DNA of 25,560 nt from Macrostomum lignano (taxonomy: Eukaryota): assembly GCA_002269645.1 (NCBI GenBank), contig NIVC01005123.1, forward strand, positions 1 through 25,560, given 5' to 3'. A program made the translations under genes and the position numbers. The notes below the pieces were generated by a model. It was not told where the DNA came from and made no database searches. It saw only the letters and a program-made list of their open reading frames with translations. Positions 3,137-25,560 of this stretch are shown here, one piece after another. Position 1 is the stretch's first letter, and every line of letters starts with the position of its first letter.

Positions 3137-3499
3137 GGCCCAGGGGTCTTGATCGTCACCGGTCGTCGCTGGTCGTCGCCCTGAGCAACGCGCGCTGTCA
3201 ACTGCGTTGAGCTCGAGCTTACGCTCTGCCAAGATAGCTCCGCTGCGTGTGCCAAGCCACGCCAGGTTACGCCGTGCGCTGATTGTTTGTAGGGACTATT
3301 GCCTGACAGTTAGTCCGGGTGGTTTGCGTGATAGGACTTTCCCCTATACTAGGCTTTTTGTGGTTTGCCCCTGTCAGGCACTATTTATTACTAGGACGCA
3401 ATCTCTCTCGCCTCTCTCGCGTCATCAACCTCAATTCGTTTTCTCTGGAGCCTTATTTTCATTCACGCTTGCTTCATTCGTCTCACTCAATCTAGCACA

Positions 3500-3995
3500 A
3501 TGTCCGACAACGGGGACAACCACGCCGCAGCGTCATTGGCTGACGGAGATGCCGTCAGGCCAGGTCAGGACGCAGCCGATGCCGGCGAGCAGCCAGCAGG
3601 CGCAGCTGCTGTCGCCGCGCCAGCTCCCAGTGAGCAACTCTTGCTGACTCAAACCTTAGCCTCTCTTCATCGGATGCTCGAAGAGCGTCTCGCCGTTTCC
3701 TCACCGTCAGCGCCAGATTCCTCGCCGCCTGCGAAGCCAGATATACGCCTTCACCCTCCAATAGCTTATCAGCCGAAGATGAACTTCGATACGTGGGAAG
3801 CTCAGCTTACTTTGTATCTAGCCACTTGCCGCGTTCCTGAGGACCAGAAATCCGCCATTCTCGTCTCTTTACTGTCCACCGAGTGCCAAGAGGTTTACCT
3901 TAACTACCGGTGTGACCGGATGCCTTTCGAGCCCTGCAGCTGCTCAGGGGAAGGTACACCGATGCCAAGAAGAAGGACAAGGCCTACGTAGAATT
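3500..3995 (+). pseudogene. gag: Truncated, frameshifted retrotransposon Gag N-terminal region
   Basis: FDTWEAQLTLYLATCRVPEDQKSAILVSLLSTECQEVY is typical of Ty3/Gypsy Gag. After a frameshift near 3927 it continues RALQLLRGRYTDAKKKDKAYVEL. It lies downstream of the LTR and PBS. No pol follows. Confidence 0.75.
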
Positions 3996-4038: not shown

Positions 4039-6276
4039 CTCCAGAAATCAGCATCAACTCGAGCTAAGCTGATGCCGATGCCACCGGATGAGGATACTGG
4101 TGAGTTATTATTTCGCCCACCCACATTAGCTAACTCATCCAATCATCCGCTCACTCACACTACACACTCATTTATGATTACTCATTAGTAGCCACAAAAT
4201 CATTTCAACACACTCATTCTTCCCCAGAACCAGCATTGCCAGAGCCAGAGTCACAACCAGCGGCGTCAGAGCCAGGGACAGCAGAGCCAGAGTTACAACC
4301 AGCGGCGTCAGAGCCAGGGACAGCAGAGCCAGAGTTACAACCAGCGGCGTCAGAGCCAGGGACAGCAGAGCCAGAGTCACAACCAGCGGCGTCAGAGCCA
4401 GGGACAACAGAGTCATTAGAGTTAATCGAGCTCGAGCCAACGACTATCTCAAAGGGGTCTGTGGCAGTTGATGCGGCGGCCTCAGCTGCAATGCCAACAC
4501 TCCTAGATGTAGAGTCAGCGTCAGAAGGGTACCCACAGTTCCTTAATTTTGGTCAAGGCCCAATCAAGAAGCTGGGAGAAAAAGTGCAGGCATGCATCGG
4601 TCACAATCTGAGCAGTCCTGATGGCCTCGCCTTTTTGATGCTGACCGTCCTGCGGGCGTCTGGCGGCCTGGAGGCAAAGATGACAGCACAGGCGGTGGAA
4701 CTAGTGGCTCTTCGCAATGAAGTGGCGGGTCTGCGCAGTGAAGTTACTCGCCTCTCTGCTGCCTCACTGGATAATGAGCCAGTCGGTCCGCCAACAAGTA
4801 ATTTCTGGCCAATTTCTTCTTGGTCGGATTACATAGTTTGCCTCGTCGCCGGAAGAGTTGCTCGTCGAATTGGTTAGTGACATTCGCCTCGAAAGAATTA
4901 ACCAACATTCACTCACCAATTCATTCATTGATCCACCCAATGACTCATTCATTCATCAATCAATCAATCAATTTATTCTTTCACTCATTCACTCATCCAT
5001 GAGTCATGAACCATAACTCAACCCCTTAAGCCCACCATTTACAAAAACGCAGAGGGCAGCGCTGCTTTGCTGTAAATCAGCAAAATGGACCATGACCATC
5101 AGGGCAATGATGGACTTCGCCTTGGCAGCCGAAATGCAAAGGGCGATCAATTTTAACGGTCGCGAGATGGCAGAAAGAGCTCGCGCTGCTGGCTGTCCGA
5201 CATCTCTAACGGACGACATGCTCGTCTTTGAAAAAGCTTTTCTTCGGTGGTTTCAATGTGAGAATAGTTTTGTGATATACTGCGTTTAGAAACTGCATGC
5301 AGTAAAAGTAGCCACTTAAAAAACAATGCTGCCATGATTTAACTTGCAAAAAATTTAAAATGCACCCATTCCAGACGCTATAAACAGCATCTACGGGGAC
5401 TTCACCCTCCAGCCACAGATGAGACCAGCCCACGTTCCATCAATGGTGGAAGTGCGGAAAACATGTATGAACATGCTGAAGCATGCCATTGACCGCGTGA
5501 CACCTCGATCTCACAAGAAGATAACAACAGCCACAAACAGCCAGCAGCAAACGCCAGGGCGACAGCAACAGCAGCAGGAAGCGCTGGAGCAGCAGCAGCA
5601 AACGCCGGAGCAGCGGCAGCAGCAGCAGCAAACGCCAGAGCAGCGGCAGCAGCAGCAGCAAACGCCGGGGCAGCGGCAGCAGCAGCAAACGCTGGGGCGG
5701 CAGCAGCTGCAGCAAACGCCGGGCCAGCGTCAGCAGCAGCAAACGCCGGGCCAGCGGCAGCAGCAGCAAACGCCGGGCCAGCGGCAGCAGCAGCAAACGC
5801 CGGGCCAGCGGCAGCAGCAGCAAACGCCGGGCCAGCGGCAGCAGCAGCAAACGCTGGCCAGCGGCAGCAGCAGCAAACGCCGGGCCAGCGGCAGCAGCAG
5901 CAAACGCGGGCCAGCGGCAGCAGCAGCAAACGCCGGGCCAGCGGCAGCAGCAGCAAACGCCGGGCCAGTGGCAGCAGCAGCAGCAATCGCCGGGCCAGCG
6001 GCAGCAGCAGCAAATGCTGGGGCGCAGCAGCGGCAGAAAACGCCGGGGCAGCGGCAGCAGCAGTGCAGCGTAGCCGCCCTGCTGCCTAGTATCCATAATG
6101 CAAGAAGAGCCACTCTTGGCAGGTTTGAAGCGCTGCCAGACCTCGAACCTTGGGCCAAAAAGATGAAGATCTCAGAGAAGAAGAGTGAATACAGCAGCAG
6201 CTCGAGCGAAGACTCACGAACTGATTTTCTAACTGAAAATCTAACTGATGATGACCTTGACAGCGATTTTGACTAA
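4039..6276 (+). CDS. Spliced BEN/DUF4806-like putative DNA-binding protein with coiled coil, 14-aa repeats and Gln-rich tail (5' end missing)
   Basis: Approximate exons are 4039-4099, 4228-4797, 4837-4872, 5053-5257 and 5375-6276; the phase at the 4797/4837 junction is unresolved. Stitched peptide TIRAMMDFALAAEMQRAINFNGR...KAFLRWFQ|YAINSIY...EVRKTCMNMLKHAIDR resembles the BEN/DUF4806 pattern (N-W/F-x-G, K-x-F, L-K/R-H-A-x-D-R). It is preceded by the coiled coil VELVALRNEVAGLRSEVTRL. Confidence 0.55.
4240..4410 (+). repeat. 42-bp coding tandem repeat x4 (EPESQPAASEPGTA)
   Basis: Directly visible repeat of CAACCAGCGGCGTCAGAGCCAGGGACA. Confidence 0.95.
4907..5000. repeat. Intronic (CATT/CAAT)n-like low-complexity tract
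   Basis: Runs of TCAT, TCAA and CACT. Confidence 0.75.
5541..6063 (+). repeat. CAG-rich minisatellite of 24-27 nt units encoding QQQQTPGQR repeats
   Basis: GCAGCAGCAGCAAACGCCGGGCCAGCG is repeated many times. Indels shift the reading into Ser/Ala-rich repeats. Confidence 0.95.
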
Positions 6277-7176: not shown

Positions 7177-7510
7177 CTGCCTCTACTGACTCTACCCCAC
7201 AGCCAGGAAGACGGTAGAATCCTTGGAATTTTCCGGCGCAAATCAGCAATTTGCCGGCGCACGGCGCACACTTCACTGCGCCGCGCGCATGGACTCGGCG
7301 CATCGGCGCATGGCTCGGTGCATCGGTGCATGGCTCGGCGCATGGCGCACAAAGTACGTCAGTGTACGTGACAATATAATAATGAATAATAAAAAAACGT
7401 ATATTAAATGTCAATCAATCAATAAAATAAACGATAGTCGTTATTTCCAGTGTTGTTTCTACTTCAAATTTCATTAATCGTAGCTTTTAACGATTGCAAA
7501 GCAACGAGCA

Positions 7511-10500
7511 ATGGAGCAAGTTGGAGAATCTTCAGTTCAGTTCAGTATGAGTAAGTCAAGGTCAAGTCACTCAAGTGACAGTGACAGTGATCGTGATGCA
7601 GATTTTGAAGTTGGAGTTACGGGCATGGCTACTACCATCAGTAAAAATGCCAAAGGTGAGTCGTCCAACTCCAAGTGGAGTCAAATTCCAAATTTCCAAT
7701 GATGACTATCAATTATCAATATCGAATATCATATATCATGATATGATATTCATGACTCCAATGACCAATGTTACAATTACAAAGTTACTTAATTACTTAC
7801 TGTCTGACTGACTCTTAAGTGTTACTGTTATTGTTAATTTTTACTTTTAGTGTTTACTATTATGACTTATGTGAATGTCTATTATTCGTAATTAAATTAG
7901 TTACTTATAAAGTTATTATTTTATCACTTTAATGTTTAGACTTTAGTTGTTAAAAACTCTCACTCTTGCTTGAGTTGTCTTGAATATTGGATAGAAATTT
8001 AGAATTGGATAGAATTTATATAATTATATAAGATTATATAAGAGTAAGATTAATAGTATTTTAATATAAATATAAGTTAATAACAAATAAAACTGAAGGG
8101 CATTTTTAATTTAAACTAGCAATAGAAGTCACTTGTGACTTGTCTTGATAGCCCCATACTCTGATACTTAAGGCCTAGCCTAGGCCTAGGCCTAGGGGTA
8201 ATTGAAGAATTTTTTTCTGGGAAGCACAGCACAGGCTGCATAGCCACTGAGCCACACAGGCCATACATACATACCCATGGCCATGGCCATATGGGCCATA
8301 TTTTCAATAATTGAAAGGGCATAGCCTATGGCTATGCGCGGCGCGGCGCGCGGGTAATGTGCCTAGGCAATAGCGGTAGCGACATATTTTTGTAAGAAGG
8401 TTTGTTAAAATTCAATTAATTTTGTGTACCTGTAAGAGTATAGAGACTAAAGAGTGGAGTTAAGTGTAGCGGGCTTCAGCTTAGGCTAAAACTAAGGCTG
8501 AAGCCAAAAATCTATTAGAAATTGAAATTTTTCAAATTTTCAACAAAATTTTCAATAGCAAAAGCAAATCACCATTGTAAATATAATTCTAGGCTACTAG
8601 TGCTAAGGCTAGTCTGGCTAGACTACTTAAAGGCCATTCGGCCATGCCCATAACAATGATAATAGCCCACTGGGGATTTGGATTTGGGGGTCAATAAAAC
8701 TGGAAGCTCAAAGACTAGTATAAACAATTTAAGCCATTATTTTATTTTTTAGCTATTCAGAAAGAGGAATGGAGTTTCCTGACTAAGTCTGGTGGTGTGG
8801 AAGCACCTGGCACTGGCACTTCTCACAGAAGCTCTGCAGCAGCAGCAGCATCAAAACGGAAAGGGTCAGCATCAACAAGCACTGCAACTGCTGCAGATAC
8901 AGAGCCATCAGCAAGATAGCCTCAGATCTTTTACTGCATAAATTGCCTTCAGAATGACAAAAAAGATCTCGAAAGTACCAATTTGTTCGAGGCAATCCAT
9001 CCTTCAAAAAGTGACATATCGCAACAATCATGACACTGTTGATGCTCACAATGTGAGCTTTGGAACCGCTGACCTTGAAATTGTCCAGAGTCTTCTCATG
9101 GCCAGGGAGGAGAAGAGTAAAAGAATTGATTGGAAGCGATCTCATTCTGCAGCCAATTCTGATGCTGCAGCCAATTCTGCTGATGCTGCTGCCAAATCTG
9201 CTGATGCTGCTGCCAATTCTGCTGATGCTGCAGCCGTTGCTACTGTCACTGATGCTTCCTCTCTCCAGCTGTTTGTTCAGCTGCCACGTTCAGACTTATT
9301 ATTATCAGGTAAGTCATAGAAGCAGCACATTAATCTTTTATTGAAAAATGAATTAAGTTAAGTAATTCTTACTGTAGCTATGGCATGATTCACTGATCAA
9401 AGAGATATGACCACCTACTTTTCATATTCTCTAATGTCTATTAAACAGGTGCAGCAGCCGTTTAATCAACGCCAGCTATTTTTGAGCCGCGGCGTTCCAC
9501 TAGTGCATCTGCTCCACCTGGAGCTGTCAGTGTTGAACAATTTGAGTCGCTATGTGGTCTAGTAAATAATCAATCGCAGCAAATTTTGCACCTGACTGAA
9601 GCCCTAAAAAGTCTTTCTGCTGCTGTAAAGGCTGGTAGCCATAGTGCAGCTGCTGCTCCTAGTCTTCCAGTTGATGAGCAGTACACTATGATTAAAAGTG
9701 CCAAAAATATTGCCAAGTTGCTGGACCATCCATTCGTTAGTATGGCATCATGCGGCGTCGACCACATCATTTTCTGTGAACCTTGCTTCGCTAGGTGTCG
9801 CAAAGTTCCGAGTCTTCACCTGCCAGTGGAATGTTCTATAGAAGAAGCTTTTCTAAACATGTAAGTCAGGTAACATGGCGAAGCAGATGCTGAGATGTAG
9901 AACCTAATACAGTAACACTAACACGCTACAATATATTGACATAAAATCCTCTATAATTTAACCCTCATAATTATACAGGAACCCTTGAAGAAAGGTTCTC
10001 TCAGCACTGGTCTGTTAGTTTTATCAACAACCATGCAGCAATACCACAGCAACCATTCGAAATTCTGCCACTTTTGGGCAATTGTCACAGATCACTTTTT
10101 GGGTGTTGCCAGCAAGGAACACTCAAACGCTGTGAGAGAATTTCATGACGATAAGAAGCGCCAATCAGGCAATGAGAAGGTTTTAAGAATACTACTGCTA
10201 CCGCTATCTTCATTATACAAATCGGAACCGCTAATGTGCACTACAAGGACCTTATGTGCCATTTGGATGCATCTGATGCAGCTATCGGCAACATTGGTCA
10301 CGGCTTGTAAGTTCTTGGTTTCTTGGTTTGTTTGTAGGCTAACATTAAAATTATTATTAGTAAATTTTTTCAAAACGAAAATTGGAATTCGCATTTCCCA
10401 CGCTTCTTATTCAGCGCTTACTGCAAAGAACTTTGGCATCTTCTTGAGTATTGCGTTGACCGAGATGCCTCTATGTTTCTGCACGAGGTGCTTCCATCCA

Positions 10501-12760
10501 CTGGCCATCCGCCCTTGGTCTGCCTTACCTGCGACAAAAGCACACCAAGCTGGACCACTAATCAAGCTGCCCTGATTCTTGCTAGAGATTCATCAGGTGG
10601 AGCGGTGGCAATTCCAGCTAGCGCACCGCCTATTTATGATGACGACATGGATGCTGGAAGGGAAGCCTTAGCCAATCTTCTATTGGAAAGTGTTCAAAAG
10701 CTTAACCTTCCGCTGCCAAGCATTGTTGGCTTTGTTGGAGATGGTCAGTATCATCAAAATGGGCCTTTTGTCGCAACTCTATGCGAGAGACTCGGCTATC
10801 ATAAAAATGACAACAGCTTACCAGTCTGCTGGGATGCAGCTCATTTTTTAAATCTCGGCGTTCAGGACATCCGTGACGTCAAGGAAATGGAGTTCTTTAA
10901 GCGATTTATAAAGCGAGCTAATGTCTTCCCCAAAATGTTTGGGCATGGCCATGGCTTTGCTGCTCTCGAAAAAGCAGCCAAAGCTCAGCAGGAGGCGAAG
11001 GAAAGTGCGAGGGCAAGGTGCATCTCAGTTTTTGCTGCACAATGCTTCCTGAGCTCTGCAATGAAGATGTGGGAGGCCGTTGAAGAATCATACGAAGTAA
11101 GTTTTTTACTGCTTACAGAAATTAAAGACTGAAAGGGGGAAATATTAATATTTGAAATAAATACAATCAATTCCTTTCTTTTAAACGTCTAATACAGGCA
11201 TTATACTCTGCCTTCCGGAAAGAGCATCCGGAGAGCAACCCAAACAAGAAAATCCAATATTAGCTCTTTGGCTACGACTTCCTGTTCGATTTGCTTGGCC
11301 TACTAGACTTGCTGGATCCCGTCTGAAAGCTATTGGAGCTTGTTCAAGATCTGGAATAGCCTCATTGGAAGTTGGCGCTTTTATGGCCGAAGGTGGCTAG
11401 CTTCTAGAATGCCAAGCTTGAGGCTTTAATGTCGAGGATTATCCGAGGCTAAAAGCTTGTTACAGATCGCTTCATCCAGGTAGACTCAGACTGGGTGCTA
11501 AATCTTATTTTTATTAATTTATAAAAGTTCCTGTAAGCTAGCCCAAGCAACATATTTTCAATAAATCAAATTCTATCAACAGGTGGTACATTCCACGGTG
11601 TGCCCCTACTTGACGGCTGGCTTACGGACAATGACGAGAGAGACCAGCGCGTCAACTGGACTGCTCGGGACCTCCGTGACATGGAGCAGGACTTGGTCCG
11701 GCTGTCTGCTGCCCTGCTTAAGAGCCTCTCATCATATATAGCGAAGGCTGACAAGCACTCCTCTGTGGCTGCTAGTGCGATGGTCATGGATGTGGCTAAT
11801 ATTATCCTGTTTCTGACCTCCGCCAACCCCAAAACTAGCACTGAGGAGTTCACCACCTCTGCTGCCATTCTAAAGTTTGTCAAGCAGGCTGAGAAGCACC
11901 AGTCTGCATGTGAGGTCTCAGCTGGCTCGGAAGTACGTGGCCAACTATGCCAGTGCTATTCACTAGGTATTTTTGTCTGGTGTTGGCCGCGATTCCTGGC
12001 TCAAACCCAGCATGAAAGGGCCCATCAAACAAGTCGCATGCTCAGAGTCGTGTGCTCCAAACGTGCTTTTGCTTCAGTTGCAGCTTGTTGTGACTACTGA
12101 GTCCGGATACAAGAGCTCAGTATGGCTGAACGAAGCTGCCATGTATAGGTCGCTGTACTCCGATCCAAGGCTTTACAAAGCAGCCGGCCAGGAGGCATGC
12201 CACTTGCTAGACTTTGCGCTTCACCTTGGAGGCACAGGTGAAAGTAATTTTTTTATGCCTTTTATAAAGTATTTTAGTAATTCTTAAAGTATTTTGATGT
12301 CCATACGAGTTTCTTTCTGCTTGTAAAGTTTCTGTATGTAGAAATAGGTTTAAAAATTACGAGCTACATGTACTGTTAGCAATTATAAAATATGACAATA
12401 GACAGGAGAAACAACATATATTTTAATTTCAGAGGCGATAGTCGAAACGTATTACTCAGTAATGCGATCGCAGGAGCAGCAAGGGGGCCAAACTAATGAC
12501 ACTCTAGCGTTACGAACTAAACTAAGCTGGATGCTACCCCCCAAAGTAAATACGCAGGAGTGCCGACTGCTTTTGAACGAAGCTGCTAGGCTCTTTTTTG
12601 TCGGAGACAGGCAACGCGGTTTTCGGCCTCATTGTGGCCCATTTTTCTACGACATTTAGTAGTAGGCAGCAAAAAAGTATCGCGTAAGCAAGGTTGTTGA
12701 CCGGTACAGCAACTCCATCCCTCGCTGTCCCTTCATTGGCCGGTATCAGCATCAGCAGCG
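7511..12760 (+). pseudogene. Seven-exon hAT transposase, inactivated by stops and frameshifts
   Basis: Approximate exons are 7511-7655, 8753-9308, 9449-9860, 9979-11096, 11198-11479, 11583-12237 and 12433 to about 12760. It has a BED-like finger (YCINC), first Asp in LTCDKST (10533), second Asp in FVGDGQY (10740), WDAAHFLNL (CxxH-equivalent, 10830-10856) and the catalytic Glu in GT|EAIVE. In-frame TAG at 8917 and several frameshifts. Confidence 0.85.
9143..9236 (+). repeat. 18-21 bp coding repeats (AANSADA)n
   Basis: GCCAATTCTGCTGATGCTGC repeated about four times. Confidence 0.85.
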
Positions 12761-13473
12761 TCAGTTGGCTGAGGAAGCGGAAGCTGAGGAGCAAAGTGAC
12801 GAGTCTAGCTAGAGTAGGTTGGTCTATGAGTTGAATAAAAAAATTACATGATCACACAAAATTTGGTCTCTTTGACCAGTGTGAATAGGTTTTAATACTT
12901 ATACTCAGTATATGCTTATAATGCTTACACTATACTTATACATATGCTTACTACATGTATGTCTGACTATATCATGTACAATGTACTTTTTACTTAACAA
13001 ATTTGCGCCTTTCGCAGCTTTTGTTGCACCTTTTTGCTTATATTTTGCAAATAGAAGCCATGATTGAACTGCTTGAACTTCCATTGATATTGATTCAATT
13101 TAGATACTTAATACTTGATGTTGCTTTTTCAAGTGTATTTTTCTTGGCGCATGGTGCACAAGTAATTTTTTTTCTCAGCGCATGCGGCGCGGGCGCACAA
13201 CAAAAATTTTGATGGATGTTATTCTGGCGCACACGCTGCACCTTCCTGACCATGGACTCTACCAAACATAACTATTCTTTTGCCAATTTGCCATACATGC
13301 TACCAGGGACATCCAATGTCAGGATAGGTGCTATGGATTTCTGTGGGAGTGAGAACATAATGTAAGTGCAAATTTTGCTTGGCATATTTTTGTGAGCAAC
13401 ATAAATCTGCTGGCAAACATTGGCATATAGGAGCTAAGGAATCAAATTTCATTCCGGTGTACAACGGTACAAA

Positions 13474-14932: not shown

Positions 14933-16282
14933 CTTGTCGTCGGCGTGCTTTTGGGAATTAGCTTTGGGTCGTTTCTCGCGTGCACTTAGCATGATCCACA
15001 CATTGGTATGGCAGATATTAGCATTTGATAGAATGACCAAAATTCATTGTCCTAGTAGAATACAATAGGCTAGGCATAAAATCTCAAAAAATAATATATT
15101 TTTATTTTAATTTTAAATTGCAAAATTATTGAATTTATTTTATATAAATATTACTATCAATCAGTCATTTTGAATTAGCATACTTTTATCTATCAAATTC
15201 CAAATGGATTTGTCTATTAGTATTAATGTCATTATTGACAATAAATTAAATATCAACTTTTTATAACTTTACTTTAGACAAGTACAAAAGCTTGTCTATT
15301 GACATTGTAAAAGGAAGGATAGTGTTACTTCAGAATTGAATCAAAACTATGCTTACCTTACTAAGTTGTTGTCCTTACAAGTTACAACTTACAAGTTAGG
15401 GGCCTACATTTCATTTTTTATTTCCTTATTACTATTTAAGCATAGCTGCTTGAAACTAATGAGCTAGCGGTTCCAGCCACGGAATTCGGAATTGGAACAA
15501 ATTTTGGAATTTCCAGGTTCCAAGAATCCTAAGGACCTAGACAGTCGTTTCGAATTCGATGATAAGTGAAGTGGGGATGGCTGACCGGATGACCCGATTT
15601 TCAGTTGTGAGAAGTAAGAAGTAGTAAGAATTTGGCACAGGCAATTAGCCTGTTTGGCCAATATATTATAGAGCAATGTATTTGGAAAAAAATTCGAAAT
15701 GGAAGTTTAAAACGACGATTCGACGAAGTGTTATTGTAAAGGATAAACTATTTGAAAGCGCGCCAGAATATTTTTACGGTATTTTTGGACGAAAAGTGAC
15801 GACTAACAACTAACAACGAGTATAAATATTAGTACAAAAATGAGTACGAATTACGAGGTATAGCTTTGATTACGAGATTACGCGATAAGGAGCGAATGAA
15901 GTTTGGACGTAAAATCCAAAAGAAAAAATAACTATTTTATGCCAATATATCAAAGCATATATAACCGTAATTACAATAGCAGTTCTCAGTTCAGTTCCGA
16001 AATGTAAATTATTTCATTCCGGATTGCCTCTAAATAGTTAGTGTATAGACAAAGTAAAAACTTTTGTGCTACAATTGCACCAATAAAAAAAATATAAAAA
16101 CCTTGTCCTATATAGAATTATACTTTTTAATGAATAATTTACATTTATTTGTACTATTTGTATTAGTCACTAGCGTGCATATGGAATTATGCACGAATAT
16201 GAAATTCAAAAGCACATGCTTTCGAAGTCCTGTTGAAAAGACACTAGGGTAAAGAAAGTTTCCTTACACACCTCTTTTTAAT

Positions 16283-16967
16283 ATATCGCACAGGGCCTCG
16301 GTCCCGACGCTCTCGTCAGCTCGAAAGGCCGCGCGGAGCAGCCCTGAGTGCGCCGAGAGTCCAGCTGCCGCTCTAGAGTAGTCGTCAGTGTCCACTTCTC
16401 GGCGTTGTAGAGCAGAATGGTTTCGACCACCGCCTGCCACAGCCGAGCCCTCTGGTGGTCGGGCAGCGCTTCGGACTGGACGTCGGCCCGGTTCGAACGG
16501 AAGGCCGCCCAGGCAAGTCCTCGGCGCCGCCGTATCAAAGTCTTCGTCCACGTGAGGCACCAGACCACCGAGTAGGTAAACCGCTGGTAGCGTGCGCGCG
16601 AGCGTGGTCGTCTGCCCGTCTGCGAAGCGACATGTCCGGTCCGCTGGAATGTCGGCCGGCACAGTCAGCACATCAGTTTTCAGCGTGTTGACAACCAGTC
16701 CGACGCTCGATGCCACCTCGACCAACCTGTCGATCTGACGCTGGGCGCCTTCAACGGACGAGGACAGGAGGGCGAGGTCGTCGGCGTAGCCAAGCACGCT
16801 GCATTTATAAGGCGCTTTTCGCCGTGGCGGCGACCGATGCGTCTGCGCAGCGCAGCAAGCCGTCGTTAGCCGAGGAGACTGCGGTCCGAAGCACCCAGTC
16901 CAGCAGCAGCACGAAGAGAAACGGCGCCAAAGTGTCGCCCTGCAGAACTCCTGATGAAGTGTCGAAC
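16283..16967 (-). mobile_element. Truncated non-LTR retrotransposon (RTE-like) reverse transcriptase fragment
   Basis: Minus-strand SGVLQGDTLAPFLFVLLLDWVLR, LGYADDLALL (YADD at 16777-16788) and downstream LWQAVVETILLYNAEKWTL, spread over different frames (frameshifted). Confidence 0.9.
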
Positions 16968-17908
16968 TGATGATGATTTACATGTATGTAATCGCCCCAG
17001 TGAACCGTCTTCTCATGGGAGAAGGATCAGATCGTATGACTATAGGGATGGCTGCCAGCCGTCTATGACCAGGCTATGACCGACAGATCACCTTCAGGTT
17101 TAGCTTTAATTAGCTTAGCTTTTTGGTGGTGTTATTTTAGTGACCTGAGGGACAAGGACCCACATGTGCCCCATCGATAGCTAATGTGCAAATTTGGTCA
17201 TCGGGTTATATAATTGCATGACCCACGGCTGTCACCACTCTGTGTGACCTGGTGCCAGAGCCCCGCCTGGGATGGGTATCAAGGGTTTGAGCGAGCAGGG
17301 AGCAGCATGCAGCCGAATAATGGGACTCTGCTTGGGCACAAATCGGGAACTCCAGGATCATTACTGAAGGATTTTTATCAGGGGATCCTTTTAAGGCATG
17401 ACATACGGTTCAGATTGCAAAGAGTTGCGTATAGAGAACACGTAACAGCTATACATGTACATGTAGTTTGGATTGATCAATGGGTTCGGGCCTGGCCGCC
17501 TCATATGAAAGGTTCTCCTCCACATGGAGCACCAGACCGCTGGTGTGATAAACCACTGCTGGCAGCGTGCGTCTGCGCCATAGCATGTTTTTTAGGTCCC
17601 CTGTGACGTCAGCAGACACAGTCAGCATCTCGGTCTTCCATTATGCTGACAACGCTTGAATCCACCTCTCTGTGCTTTCAACAGACGAGGAAAAGAGGTT
17701 GAGGTCGCCAGCGTTGCCAAACAAGCTCAGGTGTTTTTTGCCGCTGTGGCGAACGATGCGTCTCCACAACAGATAAAAAAGCACGAAGAAATCCCTCCAT
17801 TTCAGCATTCGAGGTATGCCATGAACCTCACAGATGTTCAATTGAAAAGATATTTTTGGTGTAAAGTCTACTCAGATGTTATATTGCAAAAATGCTTTTA
17901 GTTTAATT

Positions 17909-18079
17909 TTAGAAAGCCCAAGATAAGGCTATATCAGCACCCCAATTACTCGTATCAGGGCCGCCGTTTTCTACGTCTAGGGGGATTATGTGTTCGGGTA
18001 TATCACCGTCGAAGGCGGCTAATTCTTCAGCTGGGCGGTTGTTGTCCCAGAGGGTGGATAGAGCTCGGCGGCGAGACAT
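17909..18079 (-). CDS. 56-aa orphan ORF (MSRRRALSTLWDNNRPAEELAAFDGDIPEHIIPLDVENGGPDTSNWGADIALSWAF)
   Basis: Not in the ORF track because it is under 60 aa. It has an upstream TATATAA (18150-18156, minus strand), a CCAAT box at 18180-18184, and ATTAAA just after the stop. Confidence 0.5.
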   Translation of the reverse strand: MSRRRALSTLWDNNRPAEELAAFDGDIPEHIIPLDVENGGPDTSNWGADIALSWAF

Positions 18080-18190
18080 GTTGGAATCAGCAGACTATAG
18101 TATCAGGGCTAGGATTAGGGTTTGGCTCTCTAGAGGCTGGATAGATTAGTTATATAGGGAGCCCCGCGGGTGGCGCGAGCCAATAGGGAA

Positions 18191-18740
18191 CTACCAGCGC
18201 TGACTCTCGTCAAACAGATTTTCCCAGGGCGGGGATTGGTAGGGTTTGTGACCCACAACCTGGAGAACGTCCTGGAGATTTTCTTCCTCCTCCTCAGTCC
18301 TGGCTACCGGAGAGGTCTCGGTCCTGGCTCGCTTGGCTAGCGGCGGGGCCTTGGGTTTGAAGAGCTTGCCCAAACGGGCGGCAAACATCCGGTGCCACAG
18401 TTCAGGCGTGAATTCAATTGTGTAGCGCTAATTGAACTTTGGATCCCGATTAAGCCAATTGCGCCGCAAACGAATCCTCCCCCTGTGAAGCTTCTGCCGC
18501 CTTGAAGTTGCCCAACACGACTCTCTTGTCCACGTGAAGACGTGCCGCAGCCTCCAGGTCAGGGCGTGCAGCTTCGAGCTTCTTCCACTCGACCTCGCTT
18601 AAATAGATTGCTGGGAAGCCGTCCTTCCACACTCCAGCTTCGTCGGTGTAGAGCCGACGGATTTCAATTAAGTCATGTTCCGTTTCAAATGTGGGCTTCC
18701 GCGCCACAAAGTTTTCGTATAGAGCGATAGAAGAAGACAT
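18191..18740 (-). CDS. PC4/Sub1-like ssDNA-binding protein, probably with tandem PC4 folds and a basic/acidic tail, now split by a frameshift and a stop
   Basis: DLIEIRRLYTDEAGVWKDGFPAIYLSEVEWKKL matches the PC4 signature (IDIRExY...GISL..EQW..L). A second PC4-like stretch IRLRRNWLNRDPKFN*RYTIEFTPELWHRM is in frame with ORF 18191-18388. TATATAAA lies at 18785-18792 on the minus strand. Confidence 0.7.
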
Positions 18741-18956
18741 GATTAGCAGCAGCAGCAGAGAGCTCTCTGATAGCCGCGCAGCGCTTTATATACCCCCAGA
18801 TGGAGGGTGGGAGGGTGTGATTTTGGGGTGATTTTGAGTGATTCTGGTTGGTTTTTTGGTGATTTGGCCAATAATAGACGAGCTAAGCAAGTTTTTAGTA
18901 AATATTCGGACCCCTAGAACAGGGGTAGAGAGATAATCCTTCTCTCTGTATGCAAA
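18741..18956. promoter_or_regulatory. Compact divergent promoter region between the PC4-like gene and pPolB
   Basis: 216 bp between head-to-head start codons (18740 minus, 18957 plus), with a clear TATA box for the minus-strand gene. Confidence 0.55.
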
Positions 18957-21900
18957 ATGGCTAAACGCAGCGCAGCATCGACCACTTTCCTGGCTGACAA
19001 GAGGCAACGTCTTTATGGTAAGTTTTAATTAATTTCTGACATCAGTCTAGACGGGTTTTGAGTTGCTGCAGCAGGGAGCTTCTATGAATTGACAGGGACA
19101 GGAGCAAGAGGGGCTCGATAGAGAGTTGAAAAGAGCAGGTTAGACAGGCGGGGTTAACAAAGAGTTTAGGGGTTTGTCGCTGTGACAGCTTCAGGAGCAT
19201 GCGGGAATTCAGAGTGCTGCGACAGGGGGCTTACGAGTTTGAGTAGGGAAGGCGCGCAAACAAATAGCAGGCCGGATAACAGCTGCGGGCGGGGGTTAAA
19301 AAATTGCAGAGCGTTTCAGCAGGAGGGTCTACGCGCAAGAGGTTATGTGGGAACACAAACAATGAGCCAGACCGATAAAAAATGGTGGGCGCTCTGACAG
19401 CTGCAGGAGCATGCGGGAATTCAGAGTGCTGCGACAGGGGGCTTACGAGTTTGAGTAGGGAAGACGCGCAAACAAAGAACCAGGCTGGATGCGGCTGGGG
19501 TTAAAAAATTGCAGACGCGTGTCGGGAGGAGGCATGAGTGCGAGGGGTTATGGGGGAGCGCAAACAAAGAACCAGGCTGGATGCGGCTAGGGTTAAAAAA
19601 AATTGCAGAGCGTTTCAGCAGCAGGGCTTGTGCGGGAGGGGTAGCGCAAACAATGAGCCAGGCAAATGCGGCTGGGGTTAAAAAAATTGCAGACGCGTCT
19701 CGGCAGGGGGCATGCGTGCGAGGGGTTATGGGGGAGCGCTAACAAAGAGCCAGGCGGGATGCGGCTGGGGTTAAAAAAATAGCAGAGCGTGTCGGCGGGA
19801 GGGCCTGAGCGCAAGGGGGGAGCGTGAACAATGAGTCGGTTGGAGTCTGATCCTTGGGGTGCCACGAATTGACAGATTCTTCTGGTTTTTTATCTCCTTG
19901 TGTTTTTTCAGACGCGTTTGTCCCGCCAACACAGCCGGAATCTGTTACCGGACCGGGTGAGTTATCCAGCCCCCCATTCCCTAGACAGACCGGGCTGACT
20001 CACACCCCCCCCCATTCGTTCCATGCAGGTTTCACGGCCCGGCTGGATAATCAGCGCGACCTGCCCAAGTTTAGGGCAAAGGGTGTTGAATATGTTGTGA
20101 AGTTAGATGACACCGAAGATTTACGCGAGACATTTGCCAGTATGCTCGATGTCTTTAAGCAAGATTTGGCCGGCGAGGATTTCATGGCTGCGAAATTCGA
20201 GAGCGATAACATGCTCCAAGCGGCTCATACTCCCCCGGTGCGTGCAGCCCGCATGACAGCAGAGTTGTTGTTTAAGCACATTGACAAGATTGTGCAGTCG
20301 GATGCAACCGTATTAAGCAACAACTTTTCTATCCGACTGCTAAAGGCCTGGGTGCCTCGAGGTGGTTGTGCCCTCGAGAACAAGCATCTAGAAGAGCGGC
20401 ACGCCTTCTCCCGCCACTATGTCAGCATCAACAACACGGACAAGAGGTGCCTGCTGCGAGCGCTTGTTGTCGCATGCGCCTACCTGCAATTTGTGGCCAA
20501 GCGCATCACCGAGGATGTGTGGCGCAGGATCAAGACCAATTCGCCCAAGCAGACTAAGCTGGCGACTGAGCTGCAAGTCGAAGCAGGCCTCTACACGGTA
20601 AGTTGTGCACTAGTATCAGTATCATGGAATACTAAAAGATATATTTTCTGATAAGAATTTTTACGCAGTATCATGGAATACTAAAAGAAATCTTACATAG
20701 TACCAGGGAATACTAAAAGAATTTTTACACAGTATCATGGAATACTAAAAGATATATTTTCCGATAATATTTTTTACATAGTATCAGGGAATACTAAAAG
20801 AAATATTTTACCCCCACACAGACTCATCAAATCGTCTCGCAGGCTGGTCCTTTCGGGCTGGATGCACTGCCCGAAGCGATCTGTTCCCTGAACCGGCTGC
20901 ATCCTGGCCACAACTTTGGTGTACGCGTGTACCGGGCAGAGGAGGCCAACAGGTGCATCTTCAACCTGCCTGGCACCGAGATTCTGCACCTGCACCTGGT
21001 TGAACAGCACTTCAATGTGATCACCAAGCTGCCTGCGTTTTTCGGCAGCCACCACTACTGTGCCAAGTGCGAGATGGCCTATGATAGCGACCCCGCCAAG
21101 CACAAGTGTGCGGATGCCTGTAGCACCTGCAAGACTCCGGGCTCTAACTGCAAGGTCAACCGCGCATATGTAAGATGCCAGGATTGCGGGCTAAACTGTT
21201 ATAATGCTCAGTGCCTAGAGAATCACAAGCGCAAGAATAAGGCGGGCAGATCTCGCTGTGATTCAGTCCACGTTTGCGGCACGTGCGGCTATCTAGAAGA
21301 ACTAAAAGTAGGCCAAGCCCCCGAGCATCAGTGTGGTTACGCCAAGTGCCCAGTCTGCAAGCAGTACGACGAAACTGCCACCCACGAGTGCTTTGTCACC
21401 CCGCCCAAAGCCAAAGAGTCTAGCGCCCCGTAAGTTTACTATGATTTTGAGACGTACGTGGACTCGGGAAAGCAGCACCGGGTACACTTGGTTACGGCAG
21501 CTACCTCCTGCGAGGCGTGTCCCAAACTCTTCCCCAGGCCCCGCTGCGGCGCGTGCGGGGGACTACACAGCTCAGCCAATTGCATTGCGGGACGCGATTT
21601 GGCGCGCGATTTTACGAGCTGTGTGTCCCACAGCGACTGTGCCTGCGGGATGCGAGAGTTTGTATCCGTCGGGCCGCACTCTATAGACGCTTTTTACTGC
21701 TGGTTGACTACACTGTTCAAGCAGGGAGCTATTGCTATAGCGCACAATGGCTCTGCGTACGATGCATTCCTCCTGCTCGGCGCCCTACTCAATGGCCTGG
21801 CCAAGAAGAAGCCGCAGGTGATTTTCCAAAACAGCCGCCTAATGTATAAGAAGTGCGACAAGATCGCATTCAAGGACAGCCTCAACTTTATCCCTATTGG

Positions 21901-22783
21901 TCTGGCGCAATTCCCAAAGGCGCTTGGTTTGGGCACCCAACTGACCAAGGGAGATTTACCGCACGTGTTTAATCAGCCAGAAAACTGGGGCTACGTGGGG
22001 CCCTACTGCTCAATTGAAATGTACGGAGGCAAGAAAAACAAGCAGCACGACTCTATCACAGACTGGCTGGCCAAGCAGGAGGGTCGAGTGTTTGATTTCA
22101 ATAAGGAGTACCTGGACTATTGCCTGCAGGACACGCTAATTTTGCGGGAAGGCTGTCTAAAGTACGCCCGCCTGATTAAGGACATTTGCGGACTGGACGC
22201 ATTTGTTCAATCCAACACCATTGCGGGCTTGGCTATGGCAGTATTCACCACCAAGTTTATGGAGCCCAACACTCTTGGGGTGATTTCCCGCCGATCGGAT
22301 GTACAGTCGCACAAGGCGCGGTGCTGGCTTGCACATTTGAATGCAACCGAGTTTGGCGGCCGGTTGAGGACAGCGGACTCGGGCGGCGAGGCTTTTGCCA
22401 TGGGTCGTAAGGTGGACGGCTTCGACCCGGAGACTAGGACGGTGCTGCAGTTTCACGGCTGCTTCTTCCACGGTTGCCCAAAGTGCTTCCCCAATGGCGA
22501 CGTGCTGCACCCGCTCAAGAACCAGCCAATGCGGGCAATTTATGAAGAGACTGAGCGCTTCACTCGCCTGCTCTCTACCGCCTACAATGTGCGTGTCATG
22601 TGGGAGCACGACTATCAGGACGAGGGAGCGCCAGTCCAGCAGCCTATTCGCCTGGAGGATGCCCTGTTTGGCGGACGCACCGAGGCTTTTGTCCCGCACG
22701 CCGAGGCCACCGAGACTGTGCAGCTGCGCTATCGGGATGTGGTAAGTTTGTACACTTTTCAAAGTTTTTTCAAAATTTCTCAT

Positions 22784-22833
<50 letters not shown>

Positions 22834-24293
22834 GACTTGTGTTTGAGTTTGGCCTACTTACCCCCCTAGGTGTCGCTCTACCCGACTGTCAACAAGTTTG
22901 ACAAGTACCCCGTCGGGCATCCGGTTCACCACCCCGAGCCTCATCTACTGGATGAGCAGCAGCTGGCCCGGTATTTTGGCATCGCCGAGGTGTCAATTCT
23001 GCCGCCAACCAATCTCCACATTCCGCTACTGCCCGCCAAGATTAGCAAGAAGCTAGTTTTCGGCCTCTGCCGCGTCTGCATGGAGACCCAGTGCAGCAGC
23101 GAGTGTACACACACTGACGCTGAGAGAATGCTCCGCGGCACGTGGTCGACCCCAGAGCTCCACAAGGCCCTGCAGTTGGGTTAAAAGCTGCAGTCAGTTC
23201 ATGCCCTGGCCTATTGGACCAAGACTCGGACCGGGCTGTTTGCTTATTATGTAAACACCTTTTTAAAGCTCAAAGCCGAGTCTAGCGGTTCGCCGGGGAT
23301 GACTGAGGACGCCAAGGCTGCCTACATGGCCAGCTTTTTTGAGCGCGAAGGCGTCCGGCTGGAAAAGGTGGAAGAAAATCCTGGCCTGCGCTTTGTTGCC
23401 AAGATTTTTCTAAACTCGTAAGTCTGGGTTTGAACAGTGGGGACCGTGTTTTTCTACTTACAGTAGTAATACTAAATCTTTTTTTCCCTGCAGGCTCTGG
23501 GGCAAATTCTGCCAGCCGGATGACTTGACCTCCACAGAGATTGTGGACAGTTACGAGGCGTGGCTGCAGCGCCTGACAGACCCGTCCATCAAAGTCAAGT
23601 CGTGCGAGCCAATAGGAGAGTGCTTCATGATGCTTGAATACAAGCCCCGAATTGGTGTTGCTGGCGAGCGGGCATTCAAGTACGCCAATGTACCTATTGG
23701 AGTTTTCACCACCTCCCATGCCCGGCTGCGACTCTACGAGGCTCTGGAGGGCCTAGGAACCCGCGTGATTTACGCCGATACTGATTCGTAAGTTTTTCAC
23801 ACTGTCTGTCTGTCTGCTTCGCTCCCCTAAACACTTTATTCTCCTCCTCCTCCCCAGGGTCGTATACCGGTGCTCTCCGGGCGAGTACGAGCCTCCGGGC
23901 GGATCGAGTTTGGGGCAGTGGACTGACGAGGTACCTGCCGGCTGCCGCATGGTACAGTTCACCACGGGAGGCCCCAAGCTCTATCGCTATGTGGTGGAGA
24001 AGCCCGACGGGTCGCTGTACTCGGTGCTCAAGTGCAAGAGCATCCGAGTCACGCCCGAGATTTCCGAGCGGGAGGCGGAGCTGCAGGAGATTCTGCGCCA
24101 CGGCGGGGCTGTACGGCTGCCCCAGGCACAGTTCAGGCGCGACAAGGCCAGCTGTACAATTCGGACCCTGGAGATGGATAAGACATTCCAGCGCGTCATG
24201 ACTAAGCGAGTGTATGGGTCTGGCAGCCGCCCGTTTGGCTTTCGGGAGCCTCCCTTGACTGAGATTCCCCTGTCTGTGCGGCACTTGGGATAA
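18957..24293 (+). CDS. polB: Protein-primed family B DNA polymerase (Polinton/Maverick/adintovirus type), 6 exons, about 1314 codons, two internal TAA
   Basis: Exons 18957-19017, 19912-20597, 20822-22741, 22870-23417, 23494-23787 and 23858-24293 total 3945 nt, are all GT-AG and phase-compatible. Motifs are ExoI YYDFETY, ExoII AHNGSAYD, ExoIII YCLQD, LFGGRTE, motif A RDV|VSLYP, motif B KIFLNS|LWGKF, motif C YADTDS|VVY, and GGPKLY. In-frame TAA at 21431 and 23182. AATAAA overlaps the final stop. Confidence 0.93.
19183..19838. repeat. Higher-order repeat array in pPolB intron 1
   Basis: The core GCGGCTGGGGTTAAAAAA(A)TTGCAGA (with variants) has its TTA at 19296, 19501, 19593, 19678 and 19771. 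An about 82-bp direct repeat also occurs at 19183 and 19395. Confidence 0.9.
20618..20800. repeat. Five 21-bp quasi-palindromic repeats in pPolB intron 2
   Basis: AGTA(T/C)CA(T/G)GGAATACTAAAAG at 20618, 20667, 20699, 20731 and 20780. Confidence 0.92.
22786..22830. repeat. (CA)n microsatellite in pPolB intron 3
   Basis: Uninterrupted CA run of about 22 units. Confidence 0.97.
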
Positions 24294-24312
24294 TAAAACC
24301 TATTTGGAAGCT

Positions 24313-24496
24313 CCCCTGGGGAGAATTCTCTTTGTATGCGGTCTGCTACCTCCACTGTACATTGGGGCGGTCTCTGTTACTCCTCTCTGCCCGCACTGTA
24401 CTCCGCTAAGGATCCCCCGGCCCTGGGGAGGAATTGAATTTCTCTATGTTACTCCGCCTGCACTGTACATTGGGATCCCCCGGCCCTGGGAGGAAT
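24313..24496. repeat. Degenerate direct repeats downstream of pPolB
   Basis: CACTGTAC x3, GGATCCCCCGGCCCTGGG(G)AGGAAT x2, TGTTACTCC x2. Confidence 0.75.
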
Positions 24497-25063
24497 GCGG
24501 GGCGTGTCTCTTTACTAGGAAGCCGGATATTTTACTTTGCACCTATAAGCTTAATTTTGCACACATATGTTGTATTATACTTAACTTCCAGTGTGTGTAT
24601 TTTATCCTATGCATTGAAATTTGTGCCTGCGGTTAATATGCAAAATGTAATGTTTAAAATCTGCCTACATTATATGCTATGTAATTTTCCTGTATTATAC
24701 TCAATTTGCACCTACAGTGTATGTATGCACCTGCATAATTGAAATCGAGAGTGCGTATGTGTATTTCCGCCTATGTTTAATTTTCCTGCAGTATACTTGA
24801 ATCTGCCTACTACACTAATATGTACCCGCTTTGTATTTTGCCTGTTTTACCGTCTGCCAATATAACGATAATATCATTATGTATACCTAAGTTTGTACAC
24901 CTATATGCATTATGCACCAATATGTACATTTTAATATGCACCTGCATTATACCTATGCGCCTACCATGTATTTTTTATACTTTTTATGTAAATATACGCA
25001 ATTTCACCTACTATAAGTAGTTTTCGTAATTTTGTGTGTTAATATCGCTGACTATACGTATCG

Positions 25064-25340
25064 GTGTACACCTGTATTGGGCGAGTGTACACCTGTATTG
25101 GGTGAGTGTACACCTGGCGCCTGTGGCGGGAGGGTCTACATATCTGGAGGGTGAGCCTGCGGCTCGGGAGGGTCGCCTCCAGCTGCGCCTGCGGCATACA
25201 TATCGTAGGGTGTACTTATCGGGAGGGTCTACATATCGGGAGGGTCTACATATCGGAGGGTCTACATATCGGAGGGCCGCCTGCGGCATACATATCGGGG
25301 GAGGGCGCCTGCGGCATGGCGCCTGCGGCGCGCGCGCGCG
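25064..25340. repeat. GC-rich composite repeat block
   Basis: 21-bp GTGTACACCTGTATTGGGyGA units at 25064, 25085 and 25106 (last one partial); 16-17 bp GGAGGGTCTACATATC x4; GCCTGCGGC x5; ends in a (GC)n run. Confidence 0.9.
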
Positions 25341-25348
25341 AGCGCCAG

Positions 25349-25478
25349 CCAATGAGAGGCGAGGAGGGTTGACACCCACCCCACCTCCAAAAACGCCCGG
25401 ATACGGGTTCATATAGTAGTGCGTTGAACTTTCGAATTTCCGCCGGCGTTGTGGTCGCACATATAAATCCGGAAGTAT
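25349..25478 (+). promoter_or_regulatory. Candidate Pol II promoter for a gene beyond the right edge
   Basis: CCAAT at 25349-25353, TATAAA at 25462-25467, and CCGGAAGT (ETS-like) immediately after. Confidence 0.4.
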
Positions 25479-25560
25479 CGCAGACGAATCACAACGAAAT
25501 TCTTTCTCCTTGTTTTACTCGCGACTGCCGGGGTCCTCAAATTCCGGGGAGGGTAGTCAT

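Follow-up and report, generated by a model that had tools for sequence, protein, structure and literature searches.

The analyzed window comprises 25,560 nt of Macrostomum lignano DNA (contig NIVC01005123.1, positions 1 to 25,560). Its right-hand 7.6 kb contain a plus-strand pPolB gene and a minus-strand PC4-like gene in a head-to-head arrangement, together with a 56-codon ORF. The initial annotation had described a divergent pair of SSB and polymerase genes, one small ORF, and repeat blocks, and all of these were confirmed by the sequence; three of the repeat arrays reside within pPolB introns 1, 3, and 4. It had also placed a promoter at the right edge, where outward-pointing CCAAT and TATA-like motifs were indeed found. 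The features are the following:

16264 to 16977 and about 17500 to 17780, minus strand: flank outside the element, two decayed non-LTR reverse-transcriptase pieces (Pfam RVT_1, E=4e-5)
17909 to 18079, minus strand: 56-codon ORF, preceded by CCAAT-like (18180) and TATA-like (18150) motifs
18191 to 18740, minus strand: PC4-like gene, predicted to be single-strand DNA-binding, unspliced, with a disrupting frameshift near 18484 and a disrupting stop near 18429
18741 to 18956, no strand assigned: putative divergent promoter region, with CCAAT at 18868 and, for the PC4 gene, a TATA-like motif at 18786
18957 to 24293, plus strand: seven-exon pPolB gene, with AATAAA at 24292
19018 to 19911, plus strand: intron 1, 894 nt, containing an array of 86-92 nt repeats (19178-19835)
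19957 to 20028, plus strand: intron 2, 72 nt
20598 to 20821, plus strand: intron 3, 224 nt, containing an array of 32-nt repeats
22742 to 22869, plus strand: intron 4, 128 nt, with an AC microsatellite, interrupting polymerase motif A
23418 to 23493, plus strand: intron 5, 76 nt, interrupting polymerase motif B
23788 to 23857, plus strand: intron 6, 70 nt, at polymerase motif C
24300 to 25342, no strand assigned: non-coding tail of AT-rich degenerate repeats, followed by GC-rich 21-nt and 17-nt arrays
25343 to 25560, plus strand: outward-pointing CCAAT (25349) and TATA-like (25462) motifs, covered by contigs of all four runs

The seven pPolB exons (18957-19017, 19912-19956, 20029-20597, 20822-22741, 22870-23417, 23494-23787, and 23858-24293) join to a single frame of 1290 codons, with internal stops only at codons 429 and 970 (positions 21431 and 23182). 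All six introns have GT(A/G)AGT...AG ends, and excision of introns 4, 5, and 6 rebuilds polymerase motifs A, B, and C, respectively. Logan contigs were aligned to the window at 85% likeness. Among the 15 of 62 joints listed, GT..AG joints were present for introns 1, 2, 5, and 6 in run X11 and for introns 1, 2, 3, 5, and 6 in run X17, while runs X1 and X2 had none for any pPolB intron; no RNA joint for intron 4, which adjoins a masked AC repeat, was among these 15 of 62. Runs X11 and X17 were called RNA-type by guess, and the run records do not list them as RNA; contig depth was not taken as copy number. The seven-exon frame and the joints in RNA-type runs for five of the six GT-AG introns support the earlier proposal that pPolB is spliced. 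These five introns appear to be spliced at the level of the family, and the transcripts may stem from sibling copies.

Pfam DNA_pol_B_2 matched three pPolB exon frames (E=8.5e-14, 1.5e-5, and 0.068) and was the only Pfam family on the scanned exon frames. The motifs follow one another in the order terminal-protein domain, vOTU protease, Cys-rich region, 3'-5' exonuclease, VSR insert, and polymerase. Judged by these motifs, the protein unites the terminal-protein, vOTU, exonuclease, and polymerase parts by which a Polinton/Maverick pPolB is recognized. Conservation was scored against 111 other polymerases, with counts taken over filled rows. The vOTU cysteine was common to all 87 filled rows and the vOTU histidine to 92 of 95. 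The acidic residues of exonuclease motifs I-III and of polymerase motifs A and C, as well as the histidine of the VSR insert, were near-invariant. At its end, the N-terminal domain has a serine that recurs in 76 of 87 filled rows. According to Krupovic et al. (PMC11161782), this domain is the terminal protein, and the linking Ser or Tyr lies between its second helix and last strand; we infer that the conserved serine is the priming residue. Two further conserved positions differ in the window copy, consistent with decay. The N-terminus could be aligned to the pPolB of a full Polinton, L014, with E=3e-15, and the VSR insert is known from marine pPolB2 Polintons, as described by Jeong et al. (10.1101/2023.08.22.554363).

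Taken alone, the PC4-like gene of the window gave weak matches (Pfam PC4, E=0.049; PDB PC4, E=0.04), and the single-sequence fold of its fragment was poor (pLDDT 55). A profile of four PC4-like sequences (A3) matched human PC4 with E=3e-7, in agreement with the initial assignment as a PC4-like SSB. The Atlas model of residues 1-115 of sibling P0086 had a TM score of 0.78 to PC4 clusters, and homolog P0099 matched Pfam PC4 with E=2e-4, below the curated cut-off. On the basis of the profile and the structural model, the family is assigned the PC4/Sub1 fold, and DNA binding is predicted. RNA-type contigs cover the PC4-like gene. PC4-like ORFs were also observed beside pPolB at L029:3439-3954 (Pfam E=1.5e-12, two repeats; a locus unrelated to L014) and at L014:14142-15152 (Pfam E=1e-4). 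PC4 was not found as a Polinton gene in the literature searches. No family was found for the 56-codon ORF (56 aa), which weakly matches residues 71-96 of sibling model P0101, downstream of the PC4 gene of that model (43% identity, E=0.52).

Both main genes of the window are broken, a point missed by the initial annotation. The window copy is dead, since pPolB is interrupted by two in-frame stops and the PC4-like gene by one frameshift and one stop; the position of the first pPolB stop is read through by 30 of 37 close sibling models. The copy is also left-truncated, decayed, and incomplete, because a further gene, which the siblings P0100 and P0101 carry to the left of the small ORF, is missing from the window. 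The place of this gene is occupied by the two reverse-transcriptase pieces (16264 to 17780), which match each other at 72%. Because the copy is a truncated pseudogene, the gene content of the window understates that of the family. No inverted-repeat pairs involving 17800-25560 were found in this copy, which is truncated at the left and cut by the window edge at the right. Within the 3' tail, the GC-rich arrays lie at 25064-25116 and 25197-25276, and the stretch from 25025 to 25342 varies among sibling copies. The final 300 bases of the window are multi-copy DNA with contig coverage in all four runs. Folding of the right end was no better than that of shuffles (z -0.13), and an Rfam search of 15000-25560 yielded zero matches.

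Sixteen other ORFs of the window had no Pfam match at curated cut-offs. At positions 7285-13235, repeat clusters that are rich in GCGCA and similar to one another enclose fragmented ORFs of multiple exons; these ORFs have no Pfam match and resemble a decayed hAT-like DNA transposon. At 3395-3991 and 4134-6276, ORFs were observed that include some built on 42-nt and 27-nt tandem arrays, again with no Pfam match at the cut-off; one of them we take to be gag-like.

A search with exon 4 yielded 85 matches, which included 35 named M. lignano models and one further row grouping with them. The best matches were 96-99% identical, and the best outside M. lignano reached 33-37%. With the last exon, all 41 matches came from the M. 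lignano set. The 48 pPolB models, which are automated models of a draft assembly and not a locus count, form two subfamilies with 37 close and 11 distant members (about 63% identical). Because the best matches are these M. lignano gene models in two subfamilies, the element is, by sequence, a multi-copy family. Some sibling pPolB models sit within a zinc-finger gene, an ADAM-protease gene, or LINE sequence, as expected for insertions. P0010, P0011, and P0085 are clearly one locus (ADAM), at which only the extra gene, PC4, and pPolB lie between the host exons. Breakpoints in models of the distant subfamily coincide with the positions of introns 3-6, which suggests that these introns are older than the split of the two pPolB subfamilies.

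The extra gene lies downstream of PC4 and the small ORF and was found in sense orientation in P0100 and P0101 and in the antisense flanks of six other models. In its product, a predicted helical domain comes after a stretch that is acidic and rich in Ala/Thr; the product matched no Pfam or PHROGs family. Structure searches gave Atlas scores of 0.75, Foldseek E values above 1, and a best Z of 8.0, with generic helical bundles; the protein is predicted to be all-helical and not a jelly-roll. Model P0086 fuses PC4, pPolB, and the end of the extra gene in the same orientation. This arrangement points to a nested or inverted copy, or else to an error in the model. Scans of viral contigs with P0015, P0099, and the right-edge pattern gave no matches.

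The initial annotation had emphasized that no capsid or integrase gene is in view. This holds for the window: its six frames gave no match to integrase, ATPase, protease, and capsid profiles (best E 0.13). The window itself does not show that these genes are absent from the element. The same four profile types gave no match in the 51 sibling models (0/51), a test that the initial annotation had named. These profiles, built from 89 related loci of which the metagenome part was the best 80 of 441, comprise 3 to 21 sequences each, lack an independent control of sensitivity, and would overlook genes that are divergent or antisense; in addition, predicted introns in gene models can conceal many kilobases. 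Eight sibling pPolB models extend at least 25 residues past the polymerase, and none of the eight continues into a shared element gene; the left-hand extra gene, by contrast, was captured repeatedly in sibling models. Together with the gene content of the ADAM locus, these negatives are no more than suggestive of a family that lacks the hallmark genes.

The related loci indicate where such genes would be expected. Among the 89 loci (metagenome part: best 80 of 441), 27 had a match to at least one of the hallmark genes (integrase, ATPase, protease, or capsid); in 26 of these 27 the hallmark lay downstream of pPolB, in 22 on the same strand, and it began within 1.4 kb in 19 of the 26 and more than 1.4 kb away in 7. 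The window ends 1.27 kb past the pPolB stop codon, and the 19 starts within 1.4 kb argue mildly against a full Polinton. In the same set (metagenome part: best 80 of 441), 21 loci had at least 3 kb downstream, with a hallmark there in 14 and none in 7. Locus L014 contains pPolB, an ATPase, an rve-chromo integrase, capsid genes, a protease, and a PC4-like ORF. Because this full Polinton also has a PC4-like ORF, PC4 next to pPolB is no sign of a capsidless replicon. A separate pPolB clade of 29 rows (support 100; L057, L074, L023, L046, L065, L066, L020, and relatives) consists of metagenome contigs of 3-11 kb with GRF zinc-finger, RING, or phospholipase A2-like ORFs, in which no integrase, ATPase, protease, or capsid match was found; the clade may represent partial Polintons or a capsidless group. 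At L043:1-12656, the 7.9 kb past pPolB contain a RING ORF of the Sina type as well as unknown ORFs in pairs, and no hallmark gene was found there.

Among known systems, the likeness is greatest in kind to Polintons/Mavericks (eupolintoviruses, 'adintoviruses') of the VSR-bearing pPolB2 type: terminal-protein, vOTU, exonuclease, and polymerase parts in one protein, a VSR-type insert, a chromosomal, multi-copy nature, and, in L014, a PC4-like gene. The window differs in that pPolB has six spliceosomal introns and stands head-to-head with the PC4 gene. Neither inverted repeats nor a target duplication of 5-8 bp, nor any integrase, ATPase, protease, or capsid gene, was seen within the window, which includes neither terminus. 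The intronless core ORFs typical of vertebrate Mavericks, reported for intact copies in PMC8097293, are not shared by the six-intron pPolB. The nearest non-Macrostomum polymerases have about 30% identity to the window pPolB. In a pPolB tree, a check that the initial annotation had proposed, the Macrostomum polymerases sat on a long branch, and no capsid-bearing sister was well supported; their pairing with L004/L005 (support 89, long branches) was rejected. Introns in elements of this kind are known in protists, namely as introners in dinoflagellate polinton-like elements (PMC12166617).

Several capsidless systems were also considered. Cytoplasmic linear plasmids of the pGKL type are located in the cytoplasm and have unspliced genes and their own transcription enzymes. 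Assignment to this type was rejected in view of the spliceosomal introns in RNA-type runs and the chromosomal repeats as flanks; the plasmids have the same order of terminal-protein, vOTU, exonuclease, and polymerase parts (PMC11161782). The same paper describes transpoviron polymerases as lacking an exonuclease and having a helicase. The initial suggestion of a transpoviron-like element did not hold, since the acidic residues of exonuclease motifs I-III are all present and Pfam detected only DNA_pol_B_2 on the scanned frames; a Transpoviron / Tlr1-like pPolB derivative, without exonuclease and with a fused superfamily 1 helicase, was therefore ruled out. pGKL-type plasmids and transpovirons are alike as capsidless replicons, whereas the window has spliced chromosomal genes and polymerase II-type motifs. 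Because the genes are spliced, chromosomal, and equipped with such motifs, the setting appears to be nuclear. A bidnavirus, in which the vOTU of pPolB is inactivated according to PMC11161782, was ruled out by the vOTU cysteine and histidine kept in the window pPolB.

Literature searches that combined Macrostomum with polinton or maverick gave only unrelated papers; Repbase, subscription papers, and bioRxiv supplements may list the family. Searches for Polinton with PC4 and intron returned none, and those for maverick with PC4 and transposon nothing relevant. The available portions of PMC8502044, 10.1101/2024.03.25.586562, PMC11131425, PMC12220804, PMC11662393, and 10.64898/2026.10.13.758929 mention no spliced pPolB or PC4, and the accessible content of three supplements of PMC5730564 has no Maverick or Polinton entry.

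Our preferred reading, with a probability of about 0.55, is that the stretch represents the replication arm of a spliced, multi-copy Polinton-type family whose integrase and capsid genes likely lie past the right edge. That the missing genes lie there had been offered initially as one option; it is the best supported one, given their downstream position in 26 of 27 relatives and the multi-copy, promoter-like edge, but none of them was seen. Polinton membership is unproven because the integrase, the capsid genes, and the termini are outside the view. A family that is capsidless overall is possible, if somewhat doubtful. We consider it unlikely that both capsid and integrase are missing and that the family is a nuclear linear replicon of about 10 kb, consisting of pPolB, the PC4-like protein, and two unknown genes, whose copies arise by protein priming and reach the chromosomes by host break repair or with a trans-supplied integrase. 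Such a replicon would fit the lack of any hallmark gene in the window or the 51 sibling models, the host exons that flank the core to its left and right in the models with zinc-finger, ADAM, and LINE sequence, and the predicted all-helical extra protein without a jelly-roll. Intron positions 3-6, apparently common to the 63%-identical subfamily, suggest long nuclear residence, and in some metagenome pPolB loci of 9-12 kb no capsid gene was seen either. However, gene models can skip many kilobases as intron, the right edge resembles a promoter and is multi-copy, 26 of 27 hallmark-bearing relatives (metagenome part: best 80 of 441) have the hallmarks downstream, and neither termini nor a free linear form was seen.

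Quite unlikely, too, is a Polinton that kept its integrase but lost its ATPase, protease, and capsid genes in concert and acquired introns after it had become confined to the nucleus. A precedent is the concerted loss of capsid, protease, and ATPase in nine Repbase Polintons (PMC4028283), which resemble the window in having pPolB with no morphogenesis genes in view; the window family is so far without a linked integrase. The many dispersed copies imply an efficient integration route, and in L031 and L079 an integrase is the only hallmark within the contig, but an integrase was linked to none of the sibling models. Finally, the two genes could be a host gene pair domesticated from a Polinton, the copies being due to segmental duplication and redundant assembly. 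The host-style introns and promoters, the spliced RNA, and the derivation of P0010, P0011, and P0085 from the same locus would agree with domestication, which is nevertheless very improbable, as the host flanks of the siblings differ, two subfamilies exist, and the window copy is broken in both genes.

For intact copies of a Polinton-type family, the following cycle can be envisaged. A single divergent promoter would serve both pPolB and the PC4-like gene; host RNA polymerase II would transcribe them, and the six pPolB introns would be excised by the host spliceosome. Through the conserved serine, the N-terminal domain of pPolB would act as the primer at both termini of a linear copy, and the linear intermediate would be copied by protein-primed strand displacement. 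The vOTU domain would cleave the terminal-protein domain free, and the strand displaced during copying would be covered by the PC4-like protein. Reinsertion of the product would then fall to a retroviral-type integrase whose gene lies downstream or in another copy. Since the introns persist, such a cycle would run from DNA to DNA in the nucleus and not by retrotransposition.

If the preferred reading is true, M. lignano, a transgenic model animal, harbors a deep-branching, transcribed Polinton family with a polymerase that relies on host splicing. Intron-blind surveys would miss or fragment such spliced elements. Introns within three polymerase motifs would signify copying at the DNA level and long nuclear residence. 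If the family instead lacks capsid and integrase, it would represent a new class of nuclear self-copying element, a nuclear counterpart of fungal linear plasmids, and the integration of protein-capped linear DNA would become a testable question.
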